UHGV virus genome: UHGV-0145872
Source: a virus
DNA length: 41,029 nt
Reading direction: 5' to 3' (one strand)
Both the position numbers and the translations under genes were made by a program. Each line of letters starts with the position of its first letter. Position 1 is the stretch's first letter. Shown here piece after piece: positions 7,403 through 41,029 of this stretch. The notes under the pieces were generated by a model. The model saw only the letters and a list, made by a program, of their open reading frames with translations, searched no databases and had not been told where the DNA came from.

Positions 7403-8596
7403 TTAAACCCCTTTGACAACGTCAGCGTTGACCTGTGGAACCCCGATTTCAGCGGCCAGATTCATGGCGGCTATTACCAGGTTACTGACGGCCAGCGGAT
7501 ACAGCAGGCTGACCATATTTTTACGATGACTTCCCGGATTGCTCAGGCGGGCACGTATGGCATCCACTGCGCTGGCGTCCATAATGTCCGTCAGTTGTTT
7601 ACCGGCCCGTTGCAGTTTGAACGTCAGAAACTCTTCAAGGTTATTGTCCAGAGGCAGAAGTTCGACCACCTCACAGCGCTGAACGACTTCACGGACTTCC
7701 ATATTGCGTTCAGACAGTTTTGTCGCCAGTTCCGGCTGGCCAATCAGCACGATGGACAGCAGTTTTTTGAAACCGGACTCCAGCTCAAAAAAGCGTTTGA
7801 GGTGTTTCAGTGTCGGAATGGGCAGACTGTGGGCCTCCTCAATCACCAGAACGTGGCTGAACCCCGCCTGGCTGCTGTCTTTCAGGACGCGATGCAGCTG
7901 GCGAAAGCGGGCGTCCTGACTGCGTCTGATGCTTTCCAGTGGTGCGATGGTACTGATAATGGCTTCGGCAATCGCTGCTGCCTTCAGGGTTTTCCCTTTC
8001 ACATCGTTGTCTTCCATAGCGATGATGTATGGCTCGATAACAATCACCGGCGCATTCTCGCGGTTGATACGTTCAGTCAGGTCACGGCGCAGCGTGGATT
8101 TACCCGCACCGGACTCACCGATGACGGCCATAAACCCACCATGACGGGCTGTCTGGTACAGCGCCTCACGCACGTAGCGAATGTCCGGAGTGGTGAACAC
8201 ATCATCAGAACCCTGCATGGCTTCGTCGGCGAACGGGTCACGGAAAAGACCAAACGCTTTTTTGGTTGCTGGAAATAACACCTGTTTTTTGAGTAACATA
8301 TTCTCTTCCTCACTGAGGCTCGTTTTATCTGTGGTACCCGCTGTACGGGGCGTGGCCGCGCCCTGTACAGCATCAAAACTCTTCGTTGTATCAATCCCCT
8401 GACTTTCCAGCCAGGACGCAAGACGCCGGCGCACTTCTCCGGGGCTGGTGCGGGGCCACGCGTTATGATTCACAATCTGGGCCAGCGTGGCCTCAGAAAC
8501 ATCGACAGCTCTCGCCACCACCGCCTGTGGAATACGGGCCTCTTTCAGTTGCTGCTTCAGTACCAGCATGTATCCCTCCTCAGTTGCCGTTAACAA
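7403..8596 (-). CDS. transposition-helper AAA+ ATPase (MuB/TniB/ExeA-like)
   Basis: Walker A GESGAGKST and Walker B-like VLVIEEAH; 397 aa; start overlaps the transposase stop (translational coupling). Confidence 0.8.
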   Translation of the reverse strand: MLTATEEGYMLVLKQQLKEARIPQAVVARAVDVSEATLAQIVNHNAWPRTSPGEVRRRLASWLESQGIDTTKSFDAVQGAATPRTAGTTDKTSLSEEENMLLKKQVLFPATKKAFGLFRDPFADEAMQGSDDVFTTPDIRYVREALYQTARHGGFMAVIGESGAGKSTLRRDLTERINRENAPVIVIEPYIIAMEDNDVKGKTLKAAAIAEAIISTIAPLESIRRSQDARFRQLHRVLKDSSQAGFSHVLVIEEAHSLPIPTLKHLKRFFELESGFKKLLSIVLIGQPELATKLSERNMEVREVVQRCEVVELLPLDNNLEEFLTFKLQRAGKQLTDIMDASAVDAIRARLSNPGSHRKNMVSLLYPLAVSNLVIAAMNLAAEIGVPQVNADVVKGV

Positions 8597-10349
8597 TGCT
8601 GATAACGCTGCTGCGGGCCGGCGTGGTCAGCGTGGCCATGACTTCATCCAGTGCGGCTTCCGGTACGCCGTCCGGATACTGTGCCGTTAACTGGCGGTAA
8701 TGTTCCGGCGTCCAGGTAAGGCCGTCGGCGCTGAACTTATCGCGCAGGGCTTTCGCGGCCTCCACATGAGTCATGGGACGTTGTTCAGTGCGCGGCCCGC
8801 GTACGTCAGAGGCCTGACCTCGCTTCGGCATATAGGCCGGAAGTGTGGCGTCATCAATATGTTTATATGGGTCAAGCCGCCCGCCGAACGGCAGCGCCTT
8901 CGCCTTGCGTGCGGCAGCTGCATCTGCGGCGTTGTCTGTACCGGTGACCAGCGCTTCGGTTTCTTTTGCCGCCATCTGCGCCGGGGTTTCCGGCAGGGCT
9001 TTGTAACTTTCGCCAAATACCGCCGCGCCTTCAGCAAAGCCAAACTCGTTCTTTCTGACTTCTTCGACCAGGAAGAACGTCTCGTGGCCGTCCTCACCGG
9101 TCAGAACCACCTGTGCCACATCGCTGCGCCACGGGTTACGGGTAATCATCAGTTTTTCACCGACCAGTACGCCCGGTACCGTTGATACGTCAAATTCAGT
9201 GCCCCGGAACGAGACACGAAGTTTTGGCGTGACTTTGCGGAGTTCTGGTGCCGCCACAGCCAGTTCACGACATACCTCAACGGAAGGCGCTTTTTTCAGC
9301 TGCTCAGCAGTAATCTTCAGCCAGATATCCGTGCGGGTTTTACCGTGGCGGCTGTGAACAGCCGTGGCGTTAAAGTGGCTGCGCCATTTCGCGGCCAGCG
9401 CATTGAGTTCTTCCAGACTGTGAACCGGCCGGAACTTCAGACCCGGCTCCAGCTTGCGTTCGATAATGTCCCGCGCCTTTTCCACCTGTCCGGTGGCGCG
9501 GGCGTTATGCGGCTTGTGCGCTATCAGGTCGATGCCCAGTGAGCGGCACATGTTTTTCGTCATACCCGCGGTGTTTGCCGAGCCGGGGTCGAGATAGAGT
9601 ATTTTTGGCACGCCGTGCAGCACGTCTGCGCCGCCACGCTCCTGCATGGCGTTGATAAGCACAGAACACAGGTTCTCACCTGATTCCGCGCCCGTCACAT
9701 ACTCAACGTAAATCCAGCCGCTGGCATGGTCGGTAATCTCGTAACTCCACACGCGGTCACTGGCGATACGGGCAAGGTTAGCGGGCTTGTTCTTGTAGAA
9801 CTTCGCGCTGTCCATCACCTGCAGCCCTTTATGTCCATTGCTCAGGTAGTAAAGCGTGCAGAGTGAGGCGTCAATCTGCCAGACATGATTGGGGTGCAGA
9901 CTGGCCACTTCGGTATGCGGTGCAGGAGCATCCAGTTGTTCCGGGTGCAGGCCATAGTTACGCAGAGCACGGCTGATGGCATCTTCAGACAACGGGAAAA
10001 ACTCACCGGTGGTTTCATCTGTTCTGCCTGCGGTGATAAAGCCGTTAGCCCGCAGGGTTTCCACTGCATCTGCGATGGAATAGAGGCGTTTACCGTTCTT
10101 GCGGGTGGCCTCACGCAGTGTGGCAGATATCAGCGCGGCTTCGTCGCGGGTCAGGGCGCTGCGTCCGGCATCAGCGCGTTTTTTGCGTTTATCAGTCACA
10201 GAGACCTCCTTCAGCCTGCGCAGCAGAGTGGCGCGGGACATGCCAAGTTCAGCACAGGCAGCGTCGTATATTGCACCGCGTTTACCATGCCCCGCGTCAC
10301 GTGCCGCGCGGGCGACATAAACCAGTCGTTCAGTCAGGGCAGCATTCAT
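8580..10349 (-). CDS. DDE transposase (integrase-core/rve type), phage transposase A analogue
   Basis: 589 aa; N-terminal HTH region, central catalytic core with candidate DDE residues (HVWQIDAS..., YLDPGSANTAG..., GQVEKARDIIE); immediately upstream of the B-like ATPase as in transposable phages. Confidence 0.8.
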   Translation of the reverse strand: MNAALTERLVYVARAARDAGHGKRGAIYDAACAELGMSRATLLRRLKEVSVTDKRKKRADAGRSALTRDEAALISATLREATRKNGKRLYSIADAVETLRANGFITAGRTDETTGEFFPLSEDAISRALRNYGLHPEQLDAPAPHTEVASLHPNHVWQIDASLCTLYYLSNGHKGLQVMDSAKFYKNKPANLARIASDRVWSYEITDHASGWIYVEYVTGAESGENLCSVLINAMQERGGADVLHGVPKILYLDPGSANTAGMTKNMCRSLGIDLIAHKPHNARATGQVEKARDIIERKLEPGLKFRPVHSLEELNALAAKWRSHFNATAVHSRHGKTRTDIWLKITAEQLKKAPSVEVCRELAVAAPELRKVTPKLRVSFRGTEFDVSTVPGVLVGEKLMITRNPWRSDVAQVVLTGEDGHETFFLVEEVRKNEFGFAEGAAVFGESYKALPETPAQMAAKETEALVTGTDNAADAAAARKAKALPFGGRLDPYKHIDDATLPAYMPKRGQASDVRGPRTEQRPMTHVEAAKALRDKFSADGLTWTPEHYRQLTAQYPDGVPEAALDEVMATLTTPARSSVISIVNGN

Positions 10350-17545: not shown

Positions 17546-19137
17546 CAAAATCATCCGGAGTGATTTTAAACGCCGCTGGCGGCGGCCCCGAAGGGATGAG
17601 TCCCATGGACGGGAGGAATAACCTTGCTCCCGTTTTGCCTGATACCTCGGCGCTGGATGCCCCTCCCGTTCTGTTGCCTTACCAGCAGCGCTGGGTGGCA
17701 GACACCTCTCCGCTTAAGGTGATAGAAAAGAGCCGTCGTACCGGTATTACATGGGCTGAGGCATCCGATAACGTACTGACCGCCGCCTCTTCTGCGCCAG
17801 CAGGCGGGATGAATGTGTATTACATCGCTTATAACCAGGACATGACCGTCGAATACATTCAGGCGTGTGCGATGTGGGCACGGGCATTCAACTATGCGGC
17901 CAGTGAAATTGAAGAAGGATTCTGGGAAGAGGACGACGACGACAAACACATCAAGACTTACACCATCAAATTTCCTGACTCCGGCTTTCGTATTGTTGCG
18001 CTCTCCAGCCGCCCGTCTAACCTGCGTGGCCGTCAGGGTATTATTGTTATCGACGAAGCGGCGTTCCATGAGCAACTGGACGAACTGCTGAAAGCGGCGC
18101 TGGCGATGCTTATCTGGGGGGGAAAGGTACGCGTTATCTCCACCCATGACGGTGACGACAATCCGTTCAATACGCTTATCGGGGATATCCGTGCCGGACG
18201 TCAGGGAGGCAGCATACATCGCATCACTTTCCGGGAAGCCGTATCTGAGGGGCTGTTCCGGCGCGTCTGTCTGCGCACCGGGAAGGAATGGTCGGAGGCA
18301 TCCGAGCAAGCCTGGATGGCATCGGTGTACAAATTCTACGGTGCCGGCGCATCCGAAGAGCTTGACTGTATTCCGGCCAACGGTGGCGGTGCCTGGCTGT
18401 CCCGTGCCCTGATAGAGTCCCGCATGTCCGCTGATACGCCGGTATTGCGTCTGACCTGCAAGGAAGGTTATGAACTGCTGTCTGATGAGGTTCGCTTCCG
18501 CGAGACGCAGGACTGGCTTGATGAGTATCTGAAACCCTTGCTGGAGGCACTCCCCACTGATGCCCGCTCTTTCCTGGGGCGCGACTTTGGCCGTAGCGGT
18601 GATTTGTCGGTGGACTATCCCCTGCTGCAGGAGAAGAACCTGGTACGACGCGTGCCATTCGTACTGGAGCTGCGTAACGTGCCGTTCAGACAGCAGGAGC
18701 AAATCACCTGGTATCTGATGGATGGCCTGCCCGGTCTGCTGGGTGCAGCGTTTGATGCCCGTGGTAATGGTGCCTATCTGGCTGAATACGCCATGCAGCG
18801 CTACGGCTCCAGCCGGGTTCAGCAGGTGATGCCAACCGAAGGCTGGTACCGGGAGCATATGCCTCCGGTCAAAGCTGCACTGGAAGACGGTAACCTGGTG
18901 GACTTACCAAAGGATGAAGACACACTGGATGACCTGCGGGCCGTTCAGGTGGTGAACGGTGTCCCCCGCGTACCGGAGCAACGCTCAAAAGCAAAGGCTG
19001 ACGGTGGTAAACGCCACGGGGATTCAGCCATCGCACTGGCGCTGGCGTATTTCGCCAGCCGTGAAATTAACAAAGGGCCGGTGAAGGCAAGCTCACGCCG
19101 TCGTCGTCAGGCGGCCCGTATGCTGGAGGGATTCTGA
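17542..19137 (+). CDS. terminase large subunit (Mu gp28-like)
   Basis: 531 aa; ATPase-type motifs (GIIVIDEAAFH Walker B-like) followed by a nuclease-like C-terminal domain; gene order. Confidence 0.8.
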   Translation: MTKSSGVILNAAGGGPEGMSPMDGRNNLAPVLPDTSALDAPPVLLPYQQRWVADTSPLKVIEKSRRTGITWAEASDNVLTAASSAPAGGMNVYYIAYNQDMTVEYIQACAMWARAFNYAASEIEEGFWEEDDDDKHIKTYTIKFPDSGFRIVALSSRPSNLRGRQGIIVIDEAAFHEQLDELLKAALAMLIWGGKVRVISTHDGDDNPFNTLIGDIRAGRQGGSIHRITFREAVSEGLFRRVCLRTGKEWSEASEQAWMASVYKFYGAGASEELDCIPANGGGAWLSRALIESRMSADTPVLRLTCKEGYELLSDEVRFRETQDWLDEYLKPLLEALPTDARSFLGRDFGRSGDLSVDYPLLQEKNLVRRVPFVLELRNVPFRQQEQITWYLMDGLPGLLGAAFDARGNGAYLAEYAMQRYGSSRVQQVMPTEGWYREHMPPVKAALEDGNLVDLPKDEDTLDDLRAVQVVNGVPRVPEQRSKAKADGGKRHGDSAIALALAYFASREINKGPVKASSRRRRQAARMLEGF

Positions 19138-20633
19138 TGGCGAGGGGTATCTGGGTTTCACCCGATGAATTTGTTGCTTTTTCTGAGCCTCAGAAATCAC
19201 TGACCGCGCAGATTGCCTCCCGCAGCCGCGCGATCGACTTTTACGGACTGGGCATGTATCTGCCCAATCCTGATCCCATTCTCAAGGCTCAGGGACGGGA
19301 TATCCGTATCTACCGCGAACTGCGCACCGACCCGCTGGTCGGGGGCTGTATCCGCAGACGTAAAGCAGCGCTCAAATCGCTGGAGCGTGGACTGGAGCGT
19401 GGTCACGCCTCTGCCCGGGTCTTCCGTTTCATCCGCGACATGCTCGACGATCTGGATCTGTCCCGCATCATCGGTGAAATGAGCGATGCCGTGCTCTACG
19501 GGTATCAGCCCTGTGAAATCATGTGGGGCCGTTCGGTCAGGTCGTGGGCGGTGACGGATATTGTCGGCAAACCGCCTGAGTGGTTTCAGTTTGATACGGA
19601 CAACTGCCTGCGCTTCCGGGCGCGTGATGCGGGTGTGGAGGGTGAGCTGCTGTCACCGTCAAAATTCGTGGTGCCGGCACAGGATGCCTCGTATGACAAT
19701 CCTTACGGTTTCCCGGACCTGTCCATGTGCTTCTGGCCGGTCGCCTTCAAGAAAGGCGGGATGAAATTCTGGCTCCGCTTTGCCGAAAAGTTTGGCTCCC
19801 CGTGGGTGATCGGTAAGCACCCGAGGGGCGCAAATGATGCAGAGATTGAAAAACTGCTGGACTCCATGGAGCAGATGGTGGAGGACGCGGTGGCCGCCAT
19901 CCCCGATGACAGCAGTATTGAGCTCAGGGCAGCGGATGGCAAGGCAGACAGCAGCGAGGTATTTCGCGAGCTGATCACACTGTCACGCAGTGAGATCTCC
20001 ATTGCATTACTCGGTCAGAATCAGACCACGGAAGCGAACAGTAACAAGGCCTCTGCACAGGCCGGGCTGGAGGTAACGGCTGATATCCGCGATGCGGATG
20101 CGGACATCATTCAGGCGGCAGTGAATCAGGTCATCAGAACGGTGGTCACCCTGAACTTCGGCGATGTGCCGTGTCCGGTCTGGGCCATGTGGGAACAGGA
20201 GGCCATTGATGACACCCGTGCCACCCGCGACGAAAAACTCACCCGGGCGGGTCTGCGTCTGACCCCGCAGTACTTCAAGCGTGAGTACCAACTGCAGGAC
20301 GGCGATATTGACGAGACACCACCGTCGGAACGCCAGAATAACATGCTGCCGCTGTCATTTGCCGAGGCGATTGATGCTGATATTCAGGCTCAGCAGCAGC
20401 TTGACGACGCGCTGGACATTCTGATGAACGGAGGCGCGTTAAATGGCACGCTGGAACCCGTCCTGGCACCTCTGTTCAGGCGGGTCGAAAATGGGGTTAA
20501 CCCGTCTGAGCTGCTGGGCGAACTGGCGGAGCTCTACCCTCAGATGAACACGGACGATCTGCAGGAGCGGCTGGCCCGCATTCTCTTTGTGACAAATATC
20601 TGGGGGCGTCTGCATGAGCGTGACAACGGCTGA
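19137..20633 (+). CDS. portal protein (Mu gp29 / DUF935-like)
   Basis: 498 aa; immediately after the terminase large subunit, before the F-like gene. Confidence 0.75.
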   Translation: MARGIWVSPDEFVAFSEPQKSLTAQIASRSRAIDFYGLGMYLPNPDPILKAQGRDIRIYRELRTDPLVGGCIRRRKAALKSLERGLERGHASARVFRFIRDMLDDLDLSRIIGEMSDAVLYGYQPCEIMWGRSVRSWAVTDIVGKPPEWFQFDTDNCLRFRARDAGVEGELLSPSKFVVPAQDASYDNPYGFPDLSMCFWPVAFKKGGMKFWLRFAEKFGSPWVIGKHPRGANDAEIEKLLDSMEQMVEDAVAAIPDDSSIELRAADGKADSSEVFRELITLSRSEISIALLGQNQTTEANSNKASAQAGLEVTADIRDADADIIQAAVNQVIRTVVTLNFGDVPCPVWAMWEQEAIDDTRATRDEKLTRAGLRLTPQYFKREYQLQDGDIDETPPSERQNNMLPLSFAEAIDADIQAQQQLDDALDILMNGGALNGTLEPVLAPLFRRVENGVNPSELLGELAELYPQMNTDDLQERLARILFVTNIWGRLHERDNG

Positions 20634-36075: not shown

Positions 36076-36646
36076 GCCATTACAACTCCCGCCACCGCTT
36101 GAGGGTGATATCAGTCTCAGGACGCTGGGAAGACTGGCAGGGCGGCTGGATAACATCGACCTGAGCGTACTGATGGTCTTTCTCGTCGATATCGTCGACA
36201 GTTCTGCGCTGCCATGGCTGGGCGAGCAGTTCTCACTGTCTGGCGATGGCTGGGAGCTGGCGGAATCGGACGATGTTCGCCGCATGCTTATAAAAGCAGC
36301 CATCGAACTACACCGGTATAAAGGGACGCCGTGGTCAATCCGGGAAGTTATCCGCCGTTTTGGCTTTGGTGAAGTGGATCTGATTGAAGGCACAGGTCGT
36401 CTCAGTTACGACGGCAATCGCAGCTATAACGGACTGTTTGTTCATGGAGATGCAGCCGCCTGGGCGGTTTATCGCGTTATTCTGAAACAGCCCATTACTA
36501 ACGATCAGGCCGCGATGCTGCGTCAGACGCTCGCTGCATTTGCACCGGCCCGCTGCCATCTGGCCAGCCTGGAGTATCAGTCTGTGGCCATTCGCTATAA
36601 CAATACCGCCATCCATGATGGCAGTTATAACCACGGGAGCAGTTGA
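36056..36646 (+). CDS. tail protein I-like (P2 gpI / Mu gp48 family)
   Basis: About 190 aa; position between baseplate J and tail fibre; likely start at ATG about 36068. Confidence 0.55.
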   Translation: MECLMTEPLQLPPPLEGDISLRTLGRLAGRLDNIDLSVLMVFLVDIVDSSALPWLGEQFSLSGDGWELAESDDVRRMLIKAAIELHRYKGTPWSIREVIRRFGFGEVDLIEGTGRLSYDGNRSYNGLFVHGDAAAWAVYRVILKQPITNDQAAMLRQTLAAFAPARCHLASLEYQSVAIRYNNTAIHDGSYNHGSS

Positions 36647-38073
36647 TTATGGGAAACCTGAATGAAACAGAAAAGTGGGAAGAAAAAATCTATCAACTGG
36701 AGACATCAGATCCGGTTCTGGGTGGTGCTGACGGGATATCAAATCGAGCCCCCCGGCAACTGGCAAACAGGACGAAATGGCTGAAGAAAAAAACGGAGGA
36801 AGCCGCACAGTCACTGGCTGAACACGTACGTTCCCGTAACCACCCGGACGCGACACTGACAGCTAAGGGGTTCACCCAACTGAGCAGTGCCACCAACAGC
36901 ACCTCTGAAACGCTGGCCGCCACACCAAAAGCCGTCAAGGCTGCATACGACCTTGCAGCCGGCAAGGCACCCGTCAGTCACACTCACCCGTGGAGTCAGA
37001 TAACGGGAGTGCCTGCTGCCTCGCTGACGGCAAAAGGCACCGTACAACTGAGCAGCGCCACGGACAGTCAATCAGAAACTGAGGCTGCCACGCCGAAGGC
37101 TGTGAAAATCGCGTATGATCTGGCCCGGGGAAAATACACAGCCCAGGATGCAACAACGACCCGTAAAGGGATCGTACAACTGAGCAGTGCCACCAACAGC
37201 ACCTCTGAAACGCTGGCCGCCACACCAAAGGCCGTCAAGGCTGCATATGACCTGGCTGCCGGCAAGGCCCCCGTCAGCCACACTCACCCGTGGAGTCAGA
37301 TAACGGGAGTGCCTGCTGCCTCGCTGACGGCAAAAGGCACCATACAATTGAGCAGTGCCATCAACAGCACGTCTGAAATACTGGCCGCCACACCGAAAGC
37401 GGTCAAGGCTGCATACGATCTGGCAAACGGAAAACAACCGGCAGATGCCACGCTCACTGCTCTGGCAGGACTTGCCACTGCAGCAGATCGGTTGCCTTAT
37501 TTTACCGGAGCAGACCGCGCAGCGCTGGCAACCCTTACAGCTATTGGTCGCGCTATTATCGCTAAGGGCAGTATAAAAGATGTCCTCAATTACCTTGGTT
37601 TGGGGGAAGGCTCTGCATTGCCTGTTGGTGTGCCTGTTCCGTGGCCCACCGCCACACCGCCAGCAGGCTGGTTACAGTGCAACGGAGCTACGTTCACCAA
37701 AGAACAATATCCTGTTCTGGCCAGAGTCTACCCGACCCTCCGTCTTCCCGATTTACGCGGTGAGTTTATCCGTGGATGGGACGACGGGCGCAAGATTGAC
37801 GAGGGGCGTAAGTTGCTTTCATGGCAGAAAGGTACACTGGTCGGCGGTCATGACGATAACGATTCTTCGCTGGATATCTCGTACATGAGTAACGGAAATA
37901 ATATTGACTATGGCGGCGATAAGGTGTTTGCGGGGAATTACCGTAGCGATTATTTGTGGTACGCAATTCTGGGTGGAACAAACAGTCGCGCAAAAGCCGA
38001 ATTAAACGGAGCATTCTTTAACATAACCCGCCCCCGCAATATCGCGTTTAACTATATCGTGAGGGCGGCGTGA
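36643..38073 (+). CDS. tail fibre protein: constant shaft with repeats plus currently fused C-terminal collar-domain cassette 1
   Basis: 476 aa; repeated fibre motif (QLSSATNSTSETLAATPKAVKAAYDLA) three to four times; C-terminal about 150 aa beginning PVPWPTATPPAGWLQCNG...YP.L...LPDLRGEFIRGWDDGR resembles the phage tail-collar receptor-binding domain. Confidence 0.8.
   Translation: MIMGNLNETEKWEEKIYQLETSDPVLGGADGISNRAPRQLANRTKWLKKKTEEAAQSLAEHVRSRNHPDATLTAKGFTQLSSATNSTSETLAATPKAVKAAYDLAAGKAPVSHTHPWSQITGVPAASLTAKGTVQLSSATDSQSETEAATPKAVKIAYDLARGKYTAQDATTTRKGIVQLSSATNSTSETLAATPKAVKAAYDLAAGKAPVSHTHPWSQITGVPAASLTAKGTIQLSSAINSTSEILAATPKAVKAAYDLANGKQPADATLTALAGLATAADRLPYFTGADRAALATLTAIGRAIIAKGSIKDVLNYLGLGEGSALPVGVPVPWPTATPPAGWLQCNGATFTKEQYPVLARVYPTLRLPDLRGEFIRGWDDGRKIDEGRKLLSWQKGTLVGGHDDNDSSLDISYMSNGNNIDYGGDKVFAGNYRSDYLWYAILGGTNSRAKAELNGAFFNITRPRNIAFNYIVRAA
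36878..37350 (+). repeat. about 170 bp near-identical direct repeats (period 300 bp) within tail fibre shaft
   Basis: 36878-37050 and 37178-37350 differ at only a few positions; encode repeated fibre motifs. Confidence 0.7.
37583..37608 (-). other. candidate invertase crossover site A (12-2-12, inside tail fibre gene)
   Basis: Minus strand reads TTCCCCCAAACC-AA-GGTAATTGAGGA; left half matches the hix/gix/cix-like half-site pattern TTxxCxxAAACC; lies at the constant/variable junction of the fibre. Confidence 0.55.
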
Positions 38074-38079
38074 TACCGT

Positions 38080-38694
38080 TCAGCTGGCAAGTGCCAGTGG
38101 CGCTTCCGGCCAGCTGATTTCAGGTGCCGTGCTGATATCCAGTGCGTTCAGCTCGTCGATATAATCCAGCACGGCGTTCAGTTTTGCCGTTTCTTCTGGT
38201 GTCAGACTGCGACCAGCACGCAGTTTGAGGTTGATAAGATCGACGGACGCCATCGCCTGTTTCACCCGTTGCTGGCGTTGCTGTCTGGCAACCTCCAGTT
38301 CTGCGGCTCGCTGCCGTTCAGTATCGGTTACCCACGCCTCACCGTTCCAGGTATCCCATGGCGTGGCCGGCTGTTTTGTGGTGGTGTCCGCCGGGTAATC
38401 ACCCGGTTGGGTAATCAGAACGGGGTTACCGTTCTCCGTGCTGTATACCGTCTCGCCGCGGTGATCAGGCACATGCTCCCACCCGTTCAGCGTGGCAGTC
38501 CGGCAAACCACGTAACCCGAAATTGCCTCCGGCGGTGCATCGGCGCACGAATGTGCCGGAGTACCCACCCCAAGGGCGAGATACTCCACAGAGGATGAGG
38601 TGTATTCCCGGGTTTCCTCGTCATAGTGATATACAGTGATCTCGCCCGCTACAGTGGCGATACCGTTTTCATCCAGAACTGCAGTGTTACTCAT
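38080..38694 (-). CDS. tail fibre assembly protein (Tfa / Mu U family)
   Basis: 204 aa; C-terminal LNAVLDYIDELNALDISTAPEISWPEAP is the conserved Tfa-family tail; translationally coupled to cassette 2 on the minus strand. Confidence 0.75.
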   Translation of the reverse strand: MSNTAVLDENGIATVAGEITVYHYDEETREYTSSSVEYLALGVGTPAHSCADAPPEAISGYVVCRTATLNGWEHVPDHRGETVYSTENGNPVLITQPGDYPADTTTKQPATPWDTWNGEAWVTDTERQRAAELEVARQQRQQRVKQAMASVDLINLKLRAGRSLTPEETAKLNAVLDYIDELNALDISTAPEISWPEAPLALAS

Positions 38695-39227
38695 TAAACT
38701 GCCCTCACAATGTAATTAAGTGCAATGCTACGGGGTCTGACAGTGATACCCTTCGCATACCCGCTTCTGATAGAGGTCAGAATAGTAGCCTGCATACCAT
38801 TGTCTGACATTGCCACGACAGGATCGCTGAATGTTGTCCCGTCCGGCATTTTAAAGCTGCCCTCACGAAGGTCTGTAATGGAATCTTCATTGTTGAATCC
38901 CATGCCGACTATCCCCGAGGTTCCCGTAGTGTCCTGGTTATAATAATCCAGCATTGCTGTTCTTAACAGCGTTGCCCCTTGTGCGGACAGCAACTTACGT
39001 CCTGTATCAACTTTGCGCCCGTCGTCCCATCCACGGATAAACTCACCGCGTAAATCGGGAAGACGGAGGGTCGGGTAGACTCTGGCCAGAACAGGATATT
39101 GTTCTTTGGTGAACGTAGCTCCGTTGCACTGTAACCAGCCTGCTGGCGGTGTGGCGGTGGGCCACGGAACAGGCACACCAACGGGTAGCGCCGAGCCTTC
39201 TCCTAAACCAACGTTTTTATGCGGCCC
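38694..39227 (-). CDS. silent alternative tail-fibre C-terminal cassette 2 (collar domain, no start codon of its own)
   Basis: Begins ...NVGLGEGSALPVGVPVPWPTATPPAGWLQCNG..., near-identical to the junction in the expressed fibre, then diverges, then ends with the conserved ...NYIVRAV; frame open from crossover site B. Confidence 0.65.
   Translation of the reverse strand, partial: GPHKNVGLGEGSALPVGVPVPWPTATPPAGWLQCNGATFTKEQYPVLARVYPTLRLPDLRGEFIRGWDDGRKVDTGRKLLSAQGATLLRTAMLDYYNQDTTGTSGIVGMGFNNEDSITDLREGSFKMPDGTTFSDPVVAMSDNGMQATILTSIRSGYAKGITVRPRSIALNYIVRAV
39198..39223 (+). other. candidate invertase crossover site B
   Basis: TTCTCCTAAACC-AA-CGTTTTTATGCG; same 12-2-12 architecture and conserved left half-site; opposite orientation to site A. 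Confidence 0.55.
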
Positions 39228-39732
39228 TTACGATGTAATTAAACGCAACATTGCGGGGGCGCATTGATATCCATGCCCCGGTAAAATTATCCTCCGCTGT
39301 CCTTTGAATACCCGTTATAGAGTTATCTGCTGATGCAGGAACATAATCGCTATTATTTCCTGCTTTAGGATTAGCTGGGTTTCCAACGGTTATAACAGAA
39401 TCAGCAGTAGCAAAAGCGATACCTACTTTGACATTAGTATTCAGATCGTAACCGTAATAATCCTGCAAAGCTGTACGAATAAATGTTGCAGCCTGACCAC
39501 TTAGCAATGAACGCCCCGTATCAACTTTGCGCCCGTCGTCCCATCCACGGATAAACTCACCGCGCAAATCGGGAAGACGGAGGGTCGGGTAGACTCTGGC
39601 CAGAACAGGATATTGTTCTTTTGTAAAGGCGCGCCCGTCGCACTTTAACCAGCCTGCTGGCGGTGTGGCGGTGGGCCATGGAACAGGCACACCAACAGGC
39701 AGTGCAGAGCCTTCCCCCAAACCAACGTTTAT
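39217..39732 (-). CDS. silent alternative tail-fibre C-terminal cassette 3 (collar domain)
   Basis: Begins EINVGLGEGSALPVGVPVPWPTATPPAGWLKCDG... and ends ...NVAFNYIVRAA; frame open from crossover site C; its stop lies inside site B. Confidence 0.65.
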   Translation of the reverse strand: MNVGLGEGSALPVGVPVPWPTATPPAGWLKCDGRAFTKEQYPVLARVYPTLRLPDLRGEFIRGWDDGRKVDTGRSLLSGQAATFIRTALQDYYGYDLNTNVKVGIAFATADSVITVGNPANPKAGNNSDYVPASADNSITGIQRTAEDNFTGAWISMRPRNVAFNYIVRAA

Positions 39733-39737
39733 CTCTC
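39712..39737 (+). other. candidate invertase crossover site C (adjacent to invertase gene)
   Basis: TTCCCCCAAACC-AA-CGTTTATCTCTC; left half identical to site A; about 55 bp upstream of the invertase start, as gix/cix sites sit next to gin/cin. Confidence 0.55.
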
Positions 39738-39791: not shown

Positions 39792-40261
39792 ATGCTGATT
39801 GGCTACATACGTGTGTCAACAAATGACCAAAACACAGATTTGCAACGCAATGCATTAATGTGCGCAGGATGTGAACAGATTTTTGAGGACAAAATGAGCG
39901 GAACCAAGTCGGAACGACCAGGCCTGAAACGCGCTTTAAAGTGCCTTAAAAGAGGGGATACATTGGTGGTCTGGAAGCTGGATCGGTTGGGTAGAAGAAT
40001 GAAACACCTCATTGCTCTCACAGAAGAGCTACGCGCAAAAGGTGTCAATTTTCGCAGTCTGACGGATTCAATCGATACCAGCACTCCGATGGGAAGGTTC
40101 TTTTTTCATATGATGGGTGCACTGGCAGAAATGGAGCGTGAACTGATAGTTGAGCGCACGCTGGCAGGACTGGCTGCTGCGCGAGCACAAGGAAGAGTTG
40201 GAGGACGTCGCCCGAAACTGACGAAGGAGCAGCATGAGCAGATCGCAAGATTGCTCCAGAA
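39792..40261 (+). pseudogene. Gin/Cin/Pin-family serine DNA invertase, 3' end truncated by IS26 insertion
   Basis: N-terminus MLIGYIRVSTNDQNTDLQRNALMCAGCEQIFEDK... is near-identical to Gin/Pin as recalled, with the catalytic Ser in RVSTNDQ; after about 157 codons (…RRPKLTKEQHEQIARLLQK) the frame runs into the IS26 inverted repeat and ends after 16 IS-derived residues; the C-terminal HTH domain is missing. Confidence 0.8.
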
Positions 40262-41029
40262 GGCACTGTTGCAAATAGTCGGTGGTGATAAACTTATCAT
40301 CCCCTTTTGCTGATGGAGCTGCACATGAACCCATTCAAAGGCCGGCATTTTCAGCGTGACATCATTCTGTGGGCCGTACGCTGGTACTGCAAATACGGCA
40401 TCAGTTACCGTGAGCTGCAGGAGATGCTGGCTGAACGCGGAGTGAATGTCGATCACTCCACGATTTACCGCTGGGTTCAGCGTTATGCGCCTGAAATGGA
40501 AAAACGGCTGCGCTGGTACTGGCGTAACCCTTCCGATCTTTGCCCGTGGCACATGGATGAAACCTACGTGAAGGTCAATGGCCGCTGGGCGTATCTGTAC
40601 CGGGCCGTCGACAGCCGGGGCCGCACTGTCGATTTTTATCTCTCCTCCCGTCGTAACAGCAAAGCTGCATACCGGTTTCTGGGTAAAATCCTCAACAACG
40701 TGAAGAAGTGGCAGATCCCGCGATTCATCAACACGGATAAAGCGCCCGCCTATGGTCGCGCGCTTGCTCTGCTCAAACGCGAAGGCCGGTGCCCGTCTGA
40801 CGTTGAACACCGACAGATTAAGTACCGGAACAACGTGATTGAATGCGATCATGGCAAACTGAAACGGATAATCGGCGCCACGCTGGGATTTAAATCCATG
40901 AAGACGGCTTACGCCACCATCAAAGGTATTGAGGTGATGCGTGCACTACGCAAAGGCCAGGCCTCAGCATTTTATTATGGTGATCCCCTGGGCGAAATGC
41001 GCCTGGTAAGCAGAGTTTTTGAAATGTAA
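40262..41029 (+). mobile_element. IS26 (IS6 family), partial: left inverted repeat and complete transposase gene; right end lies beyond the window
   Basis: 14 bp terminal inverted repeat GGCACTGTTGCAAA at 40262-40275, followed by the characteristic IS26 leader and the Tnp26 ORF; the 820 bp element would end at about 41081. Confidence 0.9.
40325..41029 (+). CDS. tnpA: IS26 transposase Tnp26 (234 aa)
   Basis: Protein MNPFKGRHFQRDIILWAVRWYCKYGISYRELQEMLAERGVNVDHSTIYRWVQRYAPEMEKRLRWYWR...GEMRLVSRVFEM matches IS26 transposase as I recall it; stop codon at the window end. Confidence 0.9.
   Translation: MNPFKGRHFQRDIILWAVRWYCKYGISYRELQEMLAERGVNVDHSTIYRWVQRYAPEMEKRLRWYWRNPSDLCPWHMDETYVKVNGRWAYLYRAVDSRGRTVDFYLSSRRNSKAAYRFLGKILNNVKKWQIPRFINTDKAPAYGRALALLKREGRCPSDVEHRQIKYRNNVIECDHGKLKRIIGATLGFKSMKTAYATIKGIEVMRALRKGQASAFYYGDPLGEMRLVSRVFEM

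Follow-up and report, generated by a model that had tools for sequence, protein, structure and literature searches.

A three-site tail-fibre inversion switch with an IS26-truncated invertase in a transposable Escherichia coli prophage

Known fibre inversion systems and the present locus

The classical precedent for multi-site inversion is the Min system of plasmid p15B, a multiple-inversion system reportedly described by Sandmeier et al. in PNAS in 1990, which has six sites, many more isomers and other cassettes than the locus treated here and resides on a P1-related plasmid prophage. The G segment of phage Mu has two sites with a GA core and two states, and each of its variable Sv parts, which are about 1 kb long and not of the collar type, is provided with a chaperone gene of its own (U and U'). 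In the R64 shufflon, multiple inversions choose one C-terminus of a surface-recognition protein, the pilus adhesin PilV, and are carried out by the tyrosine recombinase Rci at 19-bp sfx repeats. Two loci of E. coli come closer to the one discussed below. In strain E2348/69 (EPEC), three inverted repeats (IRs), four co-existing variants and three C-termini have been demonstrated by sequencing and PCR (Goldberg et al., 2014, Genome Med; PMC4272514), and the Phi2 module of EC958 was assembled in both orientations from PacBio reads (Forde et al., 2014, PLoS One; PMC4134206).

The window analysed here is the whole 41,029-nt stretch of the virus genome UHGV-0145872. We assign a probability of about 0.9 to the reading that its element is a site-specific inversion system of the Gin/Pin/Cin/Min family with three crossover sites, acting as the host-range switch of a transposable (Mu/BcepMu-like) E. 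coli prophage and having an IS26-truncated invertase. The three-cassette tail-fibre switch is real, but its design and behaviour have been published before and the locus adds no new mechanism; particular to this copy are the truncated invertase and the one chaperone gene for all three cassettes. The element is arranged in the order constant part of the fibre gene (Sc), site A, cassette A forwards, chaperone gene and cassette B backwards, site B, cassette C backwards, site C and invertase gene (Table 1), the present arrangement being Sc-A. The initial annotation had located the sites and cassettes correctly but drew the switch too short, since the functional unit begins with the fibre gene (36649) and takes in the invertase gene (39792-40261) as well as the interrupting IS26.

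Table 1. Features of the inversion module, in window coordinates
Feature	Coordinates	Strand	Remarks
Constant part (Sc) of tail-fibre gene	36649..37594	+	Four Phage_fiber_2 repeats
Site A (s1)	37583..37608	-	Core 37595-37596; joins constant part to expressed cassette
Cassette A	37597..38073	+	In frame with Sc now; Collar domain, variable tip, conserved RPRNIAFNYIVRAA end
Tail-fibre assembly (chaperone, Tfa) gene	38080..38694	-	Caudo_TAP PF02413, E=3.5e-28; only such gene
Cassette B	38694..39209	-	Silent in present arrangement; Pfam Collar
Site B (s2)	39198..39223	+	Core 39210-39211; outer half overlaps cassette C stop codon
Cassette C	39217..39723	-	Silent in present arrangement; Pfam Collar
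Site C (s3)	39712..39737	+	Core 39724-39725; next to invertase
Gin/Pin-family serine DNA invertase gene	39792..40261	+	Codons 1-156 of 190; catalytic domain kept, HTH_7 lost
IS26	40262..41029	+	Inside invertase gene; runs past window end

With three sites, overlapping segments of 1.6 and 2.1 kb, four arrangements and three fusions, the locus belongs among the multi-site tail-fibre inversion systems, and it shares with Min a Din-family serine invertase, more than two sites, overlapping segments and several 3' ends for one fibre gene. Its likeness to Mu extends to a close homologue of Gin encoded at the right end of a transposable phage, to the site consensus TTCC..AAACC-NN-.GTTT, to the spacing of 67 nt between site C and the start codon of the invertase, which equals that between gixR and gin, and to a fibre built of a constant Sc and variable cassettes. 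It is not, however, a two-cassette G segment of the Mu type, having three sites with an AA core, three cassettes and a single Caudo_TAP gene. The comparison with shufflons, also made in the initial annotation, holds only loosely, as the enzyme is a serine invertase with a Resolvase domain and not an Rci-type tyrosine recombinase, and the target is a fibre with Phage_fiber_2 and Collar domains.

The Phi2 module of EC958 is essentially the same element as that of the window and has identical sites, published as TCCTCAATTACC TT GGTTTAGGAGAA and GAGAGATAAACG TT GGTTTGGGGGAA (PMC4134206). They correspond to a combination of the Sc and B halves of the window (Phi2_5prime, whose Sc half is identical to that of the window) and to window site C (identical to Phi2_3prime), and Phi2 is also described there as having an inverted repeat of about 227 bp, a Phage_fiber_2 and Collar fibre and a Gin-like invertase at the prophage end. 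In the text consulted, however, it appears as a two-state, mirror-image switch with the two outer sites only, without a third site or four states (PMC4134206). The ST131 copy differs from the window in its A' and C' cassette alleles (462 and 435 nt) and in the IS26 that the window carries in its invertase. The 'double inversion' locus of E2348/69 (L010) is homologous to that of the window and resembles it in its order of Sc-cassette, cassette, reversed Tfa, reversed cassette and invertase, and in the half-site TTCCCCCAAACC AA, but its nucleotide identity to the window is only 70-75%, its cassette middles are unrelated alleles, and it has a P2-like carrier and a 199-aa invertase, whereas the window represents a transposable phage whose intact invertase homologue has 190 aa.

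Crossover sites, cassettes and natural isomers

Read with the cassette side first, site A (the reverse complement of 37583-37608) is TTCCCCCAAACC AA GGTAATTGAGGA, site B is TTCTCCTAAACC AA CGTTTTTATGCG and site C is TTCCCCCAAACC AA CGTTTATCTCTC. All conform to TTC(C/T)CC(C/T)AAACC-AA-(C/G)GT(T/A)(T/A), fit the 26-bp 12-2-12 consensus of the Din family, and align with the gixR site of Mu (TTCCTGTAAACC GA GGTTTTGGATAA). The 14-mer TTCYCCYAAACCAA occurs at exactly three places in the 41 kb, all of them at the three sites; with up to two mismatches there are four matches against 0.86 expected, a count that none of 100 shuffles reached. The alignment and the exact search confirm the earlier proposal of three 26-bp 12-2-12 sites with an AA core at the starts of three cassettes, A being inverted. 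The conserved half-site proposed with it is strongly retained on the cassette side, but little beyond the inner (C/G)GT(T/A)(T/A) is kept in the other halves, and these outer halves are weak palindromes in which 4-6 of 12 positions match the cassette-side half. Site A is inverted relative to both B and C, and since the latter two are in direct orientation, an exchange between them would lead to deletion and not to inversion. A repeat finder independently returned inverted repeats at 37592-37820/38986-39214 (229 nt, 93%) and 37592-37817/39503-39728 (226 nt, 90%), and placed cassettes B and C in a direct repeat.

The fibre reading frame spans 36643-38073 and thus takes in Sc and cassette A; RefSeq lists its homologues under the name tail fiber protein. 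Pfam finds Phage_fiber_2 (PF03406) in four stretches of Sc (E=2e-76), which also carries a 300-nt in-frame tandem repeat at 36877-37424 (TRF), and Collar (PF07484, E=3e-15) in cassette A, the collar region of which resembles the T4 gp37 tip 2XGF. The cassettes are each about 160-170 aa long and of the collar-domain type, and cassettes A and B share a 170-bp stretch of perfect identity. As first proposed, the three translations have a common GLGEGSALPVGVPVPWPTATPPAGWL...LPDLRGEFIRGWDDGRK segment at the start, end in RPRxIAxNYIVRA and diverge in the middle. Fusions of Sc to B and to C made in silico at the AA core are in frame and open to the cassette stop codons, in agreement with the expectation that A-B and A-C exchanges preserve the frame. 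Compared with the E2348/69 cassettes, the shared collar part has a dN/dS of about 0.1, indicative of purifying selection, and the variable parts are saturated and give no usable dN/dS signal in the same comparison. By analogy with Mu and P1, and considering the Collar domain, the cassettes presumably bind receptors. RefSeq labels the silent cassettes either as 'incomplete' pseudogenes or as free-standing 'phage tail proteins'.

The strongest evidence for the switch comes from natural isomers. In-silico inversions of the window were matched to E. coli loci, with only exact single-piece matches used, and all four isomers that three sites allow were found in complete E. coli genomes. Arrangements 2, 3 and 4 match L003, L005 and L004/L006, respectively, in single 3.1-kb HSPs of 98.2-99.3% identity, while alignments of wrong in-silico arrangements break at the sites. 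A contiguous Sc-B fusion is present in other genomes including L003 (99.9% identity), and Sc-C fusions in L004, L005 and L006. Three of the four isomers occur in ST131 genomes with the prophage at the aroA site, where the invertase-proximal cassette is C' (JJ1887), B (JJ1886 and others) or A', the B and A' cases each matching the predicted junction in one piece at 100% identity. Across the isomers, the cassette half found next to the Sc half GGTAATTGAGGA is that of A, of B or of C, and in L003-L006 the cassette half-sites and adjacent SNPs swap among three fixed halves exactly at the core, with the exchange point lying within the AAACC-AA stretch. The search for inversion isomers, which the initial annotation had suggested for long-read data, yielded four arrangements in complete genomes with junctions at the core, and its claim of a multi-cassette switch with three sites and three alternative C-termini is upheld by these isomers and by the adjoining Gin-like serine invertase.

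The repeats themselves offer two other accounts of these isomers, both of which fare poorly. One might invoke homologous recombination by RecA across the inverted repeats of 226-229 bp, in place of exchange at the 26-bp sites, as repeats of some 230 bp with 90-93% identity and a 170-bp perfect A/B stretch are long enough for it. However, the homology of the partners stops at the core, the flanks on the Sc, C-tail and invertase sides being unrelated, and the cassette-specific SNPs at 6-27 from the core keep to their own cassette in every isomer; the exchange must therefore fall in the final ~7 bp of homology. None of the isomers has a chimeric cassette, a dedicated Gin-like invertase is encoded beside the sites, and the core-exact breakpoints largely refute homologous recombination as the source, which we regard as very improbable. 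Even less credible is the suggestion that the additional cassettes are paralogous relics, fixed in place, and that the repeats produced the isomers as assembly artefacts. Inverted repeats can indeed mislead assemblers, and several silent cassettes figure as 'incomplete' pseudogenes in RefSeq, but the four arrangements recur with exact junctions across many independent complete genomes, and heterogeneity among PacBio reads (PMC4134206) and PCR validation (PMC4272514) have been published. All cassettes, moreover, keep open frames even in the 70-75% identical module, and their shared collar part is under the constraint noted above; recurrent junctions, published reads and PCR, and intact frames together refute this account.

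Site-specific inversion, the reading we retain, would proceed as in other members of the family: the 190-aa serine invertase would bind the 26-bp sites as dimers, two inverted sites would be synapsed, presumably aided by an enhancer to which Fis binds, located in the 5' end of the gene, and the AA/TT core would be cut with a 2-bp stagger and the strands rotated by 180 degrees. The natural isomers show what follows: exchange between A and B inverts 1.6 kb and that between A and C 2.1 kb, in overlapping segments, and after an A-C flip sites B and C become an inverted pair. The interconverting set comprises Sc-A, Sc-B followed by the chaperone gene, Sc-C followed by B and the chaperone gene, and Sc-C followed by A; three sites hence give four arrangements but only three fusion proteins, and the outcome is three alternative fibre tips on one shaft.

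The truncated invertase and the single chaperone gene

With its inverted sites and with inversion observed both as isomers in complete genomes and in published reads and PCR, the locus shows features of the Din family, which is also characterized by an enzyme with a catalytic Ser9 and a C-terminal HTH domain. The intact homologue of the window invertase (190 aa, locus L001) possesses both parts of the enzyme, with Resolvase at E=8e-51 and HTH_7 at E=1e-12, matches the Mu Gin structures 3UJ3 and 4M6F at E=1e-92 to 2e-93, and conserves the Ser9 context GYIRVSTNDQ. The window copy is identical to it at 157 of 158 positions up to the IS26 junction and retains Resolvase only. Beyond the junction lies an IS26 transposase reading frame (40307-41029), the matching part of which is annotated in RefSeq as 'IS6-like element IS26 family transposase', and the terminal repeat GGCACTGTTGCAAA is what we take to be the IS26 end. 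The exact invertase-IS26 junction, sought as a marker of sister isolates, has no match among complete E. coli genomes. The 5' coding DNA of the invertase has ~80% nucleotide identity to that of gin and is homologous to the region of gin and hin in which the Fis-bound enhancer lies, that of Hin being located ~100 bp from the site (PMC3798978). It contains degenerate G-N13-C Fis-like 15-mers at the same codon positions as gin, a weak motif that is too degenerate to decide the matter.

Because IS26 removes the DNA-binding domain of the invertase, the window switch is predicted to be inactive in cis and held in Sc-A, and it would flip only if another resident Din-family invertase acted in trans. 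That it does still flip, through Pin of e14 or an invertase of a P2-like or P1-like prophage, is a serious possibility, though we lean against it. The three sites remain intact, and so do the initial 468 nt of the invertase gene, which are homologous to the portion of gin that carries the enhancer; such modules also often occur several to an E. coli genome (median 4, up to 19 matching places). A precedent is reported by Forde et al., in whose work EC958 Phi4 inverts though its invertase is without an HTH domain, which is attributed to trans action (PMC4134206).

The chaperone gene, which RefSeq calls 'tail fiber assembly protein', is arranged tail-to-tail with cassette A and shares 1 nt with the stop codon of cassette B; a PDB sequence search returned no solved structure related to its product. 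In two of the four arrangements, that of the window among them, the gene runs against the late operon, and scanning the invertible region for promoters and terminators gave nothing above chance and no leftward promoter for the antisense chaperone gene. One chaperone serving three cassettes, and antisense in half of the arrangements, is not explained by a simple model. It is conceivable, though we think it unlikely, that the chaperone gene forms a component of the switch, as only two of the four arrangements place it in the direction of the late operon. Tip C would then be made with Tfa when B and Tfa follow Sc-C and without it when A and a reversed Tfa do, and Tfa would never accompany tip A. 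Some proteins of the Tfa/gp38 type stay on the fibre tip or contribute to binding, and if this one did so, the switch would have four functional states and not three, or else a deliberate 'off' state with a defective fibre; the Sc-A state locked by IS26 would serve naturally to test whether a collar-type tip can do without Tfa.

Distribution and significance

Among 5,426 complete E. coli genomes, about 1,300 contain matches to the module, 355 of them at the aroA site and ST131 strains included. At least 80% of the junction query was covered in 103 genomes for ScA, 327 for ScB and 78 for ScC, and in 355 for each of the aroA-junction queries, but isomer frequencies cannot be read from these counts, in which coverage is inflated by the ~200-bp start common to the cassettes and other cassette alleles are missed. 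Alignment of the cassettes against one genome per species (GTDB) gave 79 loci, all distant (44-58% identity, with one partial match at 77%) and mostly with one or two collar cassettes. Among these 79 there was no further locus with three collar cassettes and an invertase, which says little on the spread of the design; Photorhabdus loci with three to four cassettes on the same strand had no invertase within the flank.

Tail-fibre inversion switches represent a form of bet-hedging by temperate phages over the receptors of their hosts, and inversion at the fibre genes accounts for E. coli prophage assemblies that break or differ there. The third, internal site matters for the annotation of silent cassettes and for the reading of structural variation among near-clonal isolates.

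Organization of the invertible region

The prophage begins at about 3400 in the window, beside ordinary E. coli chromosome on the left, and runs ~3400-40261, with the switch region at its right end. Besides the phage genes listed in the table it encodes Gam, and its early and late genes occupy opposite strands. Near-identical copies (L001-L008, loci fetched for comparison) occupy many different chromosomal positions, often interrupting genes (flgA, yehY), while others border a truncated SASA-family esterase gene, extend into the gspL annotation or adjoin yccA, ybjC or aroA. Such varied, gene-interrupting insertion points are as expected of a transposable phage, and the prophage is one.

Coordinates of the switch module and of selected prophage genes (site sequences are written cassette side first)
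Feature	Position	Strand	Details
AAA (MuB-like) protein	7406-8596
rve-family transposase	8583-10349
Mu-type portal	19137-20630
Tail-fibre gene	36649-38073	+	474 codons; 3' of V/W/J/I-type baseplate genes
Site A	37583-37608		TTCCCCCAAACC AA GGTAATTGAGGA
Tail-fibre assembly gene (Tfa)	38080-38694	-	Caudo_TAP
Cassette B	38694-39209	-	Collar domain, 171 codons
Site B	39198-39223		TTCTCCTAAACC AA CGTTTTTATGCG
Cassette C	39217-39723	-	Collar, 168 codons
Site C	39712-39737		TTCCCCCAAACC AA CGTTTATCTCTC
Serine recombinase gene	39792-40261	+	156 codons, then IS26 terminal repeat
IS26	40262-41029		Terminal repeat GGCACTGTTGCAAA at 40262; transposase gene fills the remaining window

Domain searches placed four Phage_fiber_2 repeats in the N-terminal ~315 codons of the fibre gene and a Phage Tail Collar domain in the C-terminal ~160. 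Three opposite-strand genes follow 3' of it, namely the assembly gene and cassettes B and C, with a one-base overlap between the cassette B stop codon and the start of the assembly gene. The shaft, in the constant part of the fibre gene (Sc), carries an in-frame 300-nt tandem repeat at 36877-37424 (1.8 copies, 87% identity); homologous fibre genes elsewhere span 1431-1995 nt, a range that suggests shaft-length polymorphism by gain or loss of repeats.

Site A is inverted relative to sites B and C. The 14-mer TTCYCCYAAACCAA has exactly three occurrences in 41 kb, all at the sites and well over shuffle expectation, and a repeat finder, independent of the site search, returned inverted repeats of 229 nt and 226 nt starting at the sites, as well as a direct repeat linking cassettes B and C. 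The three 12-2-12 sites of the initial annotation exist as described, but strong conservation is limited to the cassette-side half, the other halves retaining little beyond an inner (C/G)GT(T/A)(T/A). Its description of cassettes with the same start, an NYIVRA end and a divergent middle is borne out by the translations, in which the first ~75 residues are near-perfectly common, the ends read RPRxIAxNYIVRA and the middles are unrelated; the expected in-frame products of A-B or A-C inversion were likewise obtained when fusions were made in silico at the core. Six cassettes, those of the window and of the E2348/69 prophage (L010), have in common the start GLGEGSALPVGVPVPW, the collar domain and the end RPRNIxFNYIVRxA around unrelated middles of 50-80 residues, and thus represent a fixed scaffold carrying a hypervariable insert.

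Natural isomers and site-specific exchange

Three sites allow four arrangements, and the three that differ from the window's own were built in silico by core exchange and compared with complete E. coli genomes. Every real locus compared aligned in one piece over 3.1 kb (98.2-99.3% identity) with only one arrangement, its alignments to the non-matching arrangements being split at the sites. Arrangement 1, that of the window (Sc-A), was found at L001, L002 and L007, arrangement 2 (Sc-B, Tfa, reversed A, reversed C) at L003, arrangement 3 (Sc-C, B, Tfa, reversed A) at L005, and arrangement 4 (Sc-C, A, reversed Tfa, reversed B) at L004 and L006; RefSeq annotations are consistent with these calls. 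Base-level comparison revealed that the cassette-specific half-sites, together with the SNPs immediately inward of them, switch partners among three fixed halves (those on the Sc, C-tail and invertase sides) exactly at the AA core. Because the flanks beyond the core are unrelated and SNPs 6-27 nt inside it remain with their own cassette, the exchange is site-specific rather than a product of general homologous recombination.

Partner swapping also holds inside one lysogen lineage. In the ST131 prophage next to aroA, the invertase-adjacent cassette is C' in JJ1887, B in JJ1886 and others, and A' in a third set (A' and C' are other alleles of cassettes A and C), with the B and A' junctions giving 100% identical, single-piece matches to the predicted junctions. 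The proposal of a multi-cassette inversion switch, made from the window alone, is therefore supported by natural isomers of all four arrangements, found among complete E. coli genomes and including the ST131 copies at aroA.

The locus of E. coli EE72d (L012, NZ_CP065136.1) has cassettes A and B without C and carries a hybrid site in which the B half is joined to the invertase-side half, as would be left behind by a deletion between sites in direct orientation; alternatively, it may be an ancestral two-cassette form. Cassette homologues in draft genomes of other species (L016, L018-L020, L044, L046) are often on contigs of no more than 1-2 kb, a fragmentation that would be expected from assembly breaks at invertible repeats in mixed orientation.

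Invertase and assembly gene

The intact invertase homologue (190 aa, Resolvase and HTH_7 domains) matches Mu Gin (PDB 3UJ3, 4M6F) over residues 1-181, catalytic serine context included (E=1e-92 to 2e-93), and the first 260 nt of the invertase gene show about 80% identity to gin. The core of the last site lies 67 nt from the invertase start codon, which equals the gixR-gin distance in Mu. In the Hin system, Fis binds an enhancer some 100 bp away from one hix site (PMC3798978). The corresponding DNA is still present in this invertase gene and is a candidate enhancer, the Fis-like matches in it being degenerate. In the window, IS26 insertion after codon 156 has removed the HTH domain, so that the invertase is not expected to bind its sites and, barring a different invertase supplied in trans, the element is presumably locked as Sc-A. 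A search of 5,426 complete E. coli genomes did not find the invertase-IS26 junction in any of them. A similarly truncated invertase is described for EC958 Phi4, for which action in trans was inferred (Forde et al., 2014, PMC4134206).

The module has one assembly gene for three cassettes. This gene points the same way as the late operon in arrangements 2 and 3 only and is antisense to it in the other two of the four, the window's included. When cassette A is expressed, the gene is never co-oriented and can never come after A, and a promoter scan of the invertible region found no leftward promoter for the antisense gene. The E2348/69 module has the same single-assembly-gene design. Tips A and C may not need the assembly protein for folding, or may use one supplied by a second prophage; alternatively, arrangements lacking a co-oriented Tfa may give defective particles.

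Relation to known inversion systems

At the E2348/69 locus, four variants with three alternative C-termini arise from three inverted repeats, and all four co-exist, as confirmed by PCR (Goldberg et al., 2014, PMC4272514). The gene order of this locus is that of the window, each of its three cassettes starts with the half-site TTCCCCCAAACC AA, and nucleotide identity to the window is 70-75%; the cassette middles differ. For EC958 Phi2, the crossover sites TCCTCAATTACC TT GGTTTAGGAGAA and GAGAGATAAACG TT GGTTTGGGGGAA, an inverted repeat of 227 bp and a segment of 2067 bp that PacBio reads show in either orientation have been described, with the site list confined to the outer two (Forde et al., 2014, PMC4134206). 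One of these sites equals a junction of the window's Sc half with its B half, and the other is the window's site C; the Phi2 switch is the same module. Photorhabdus loci (L054, L083, L085, L086) hold three or four collar-type cassettes, all in one orientation, and no invertase was found within their 4.5-kb flanks; they show tip modules of this type in a different, tandem layout.

The suggested likeness to Min- and shufflon-type multi-site systems holds for Min of p15B, the classical multi-site precedent, but the R64 shufflon is an analogy only, since it relies on a tyrosine recombinase. The system is of a well-understood kind, with this module and the three-site design already in the literature, and two features are specific to this window: IS26 has knocked out the invertase, and as a result the Sc-A state is probably frozen.
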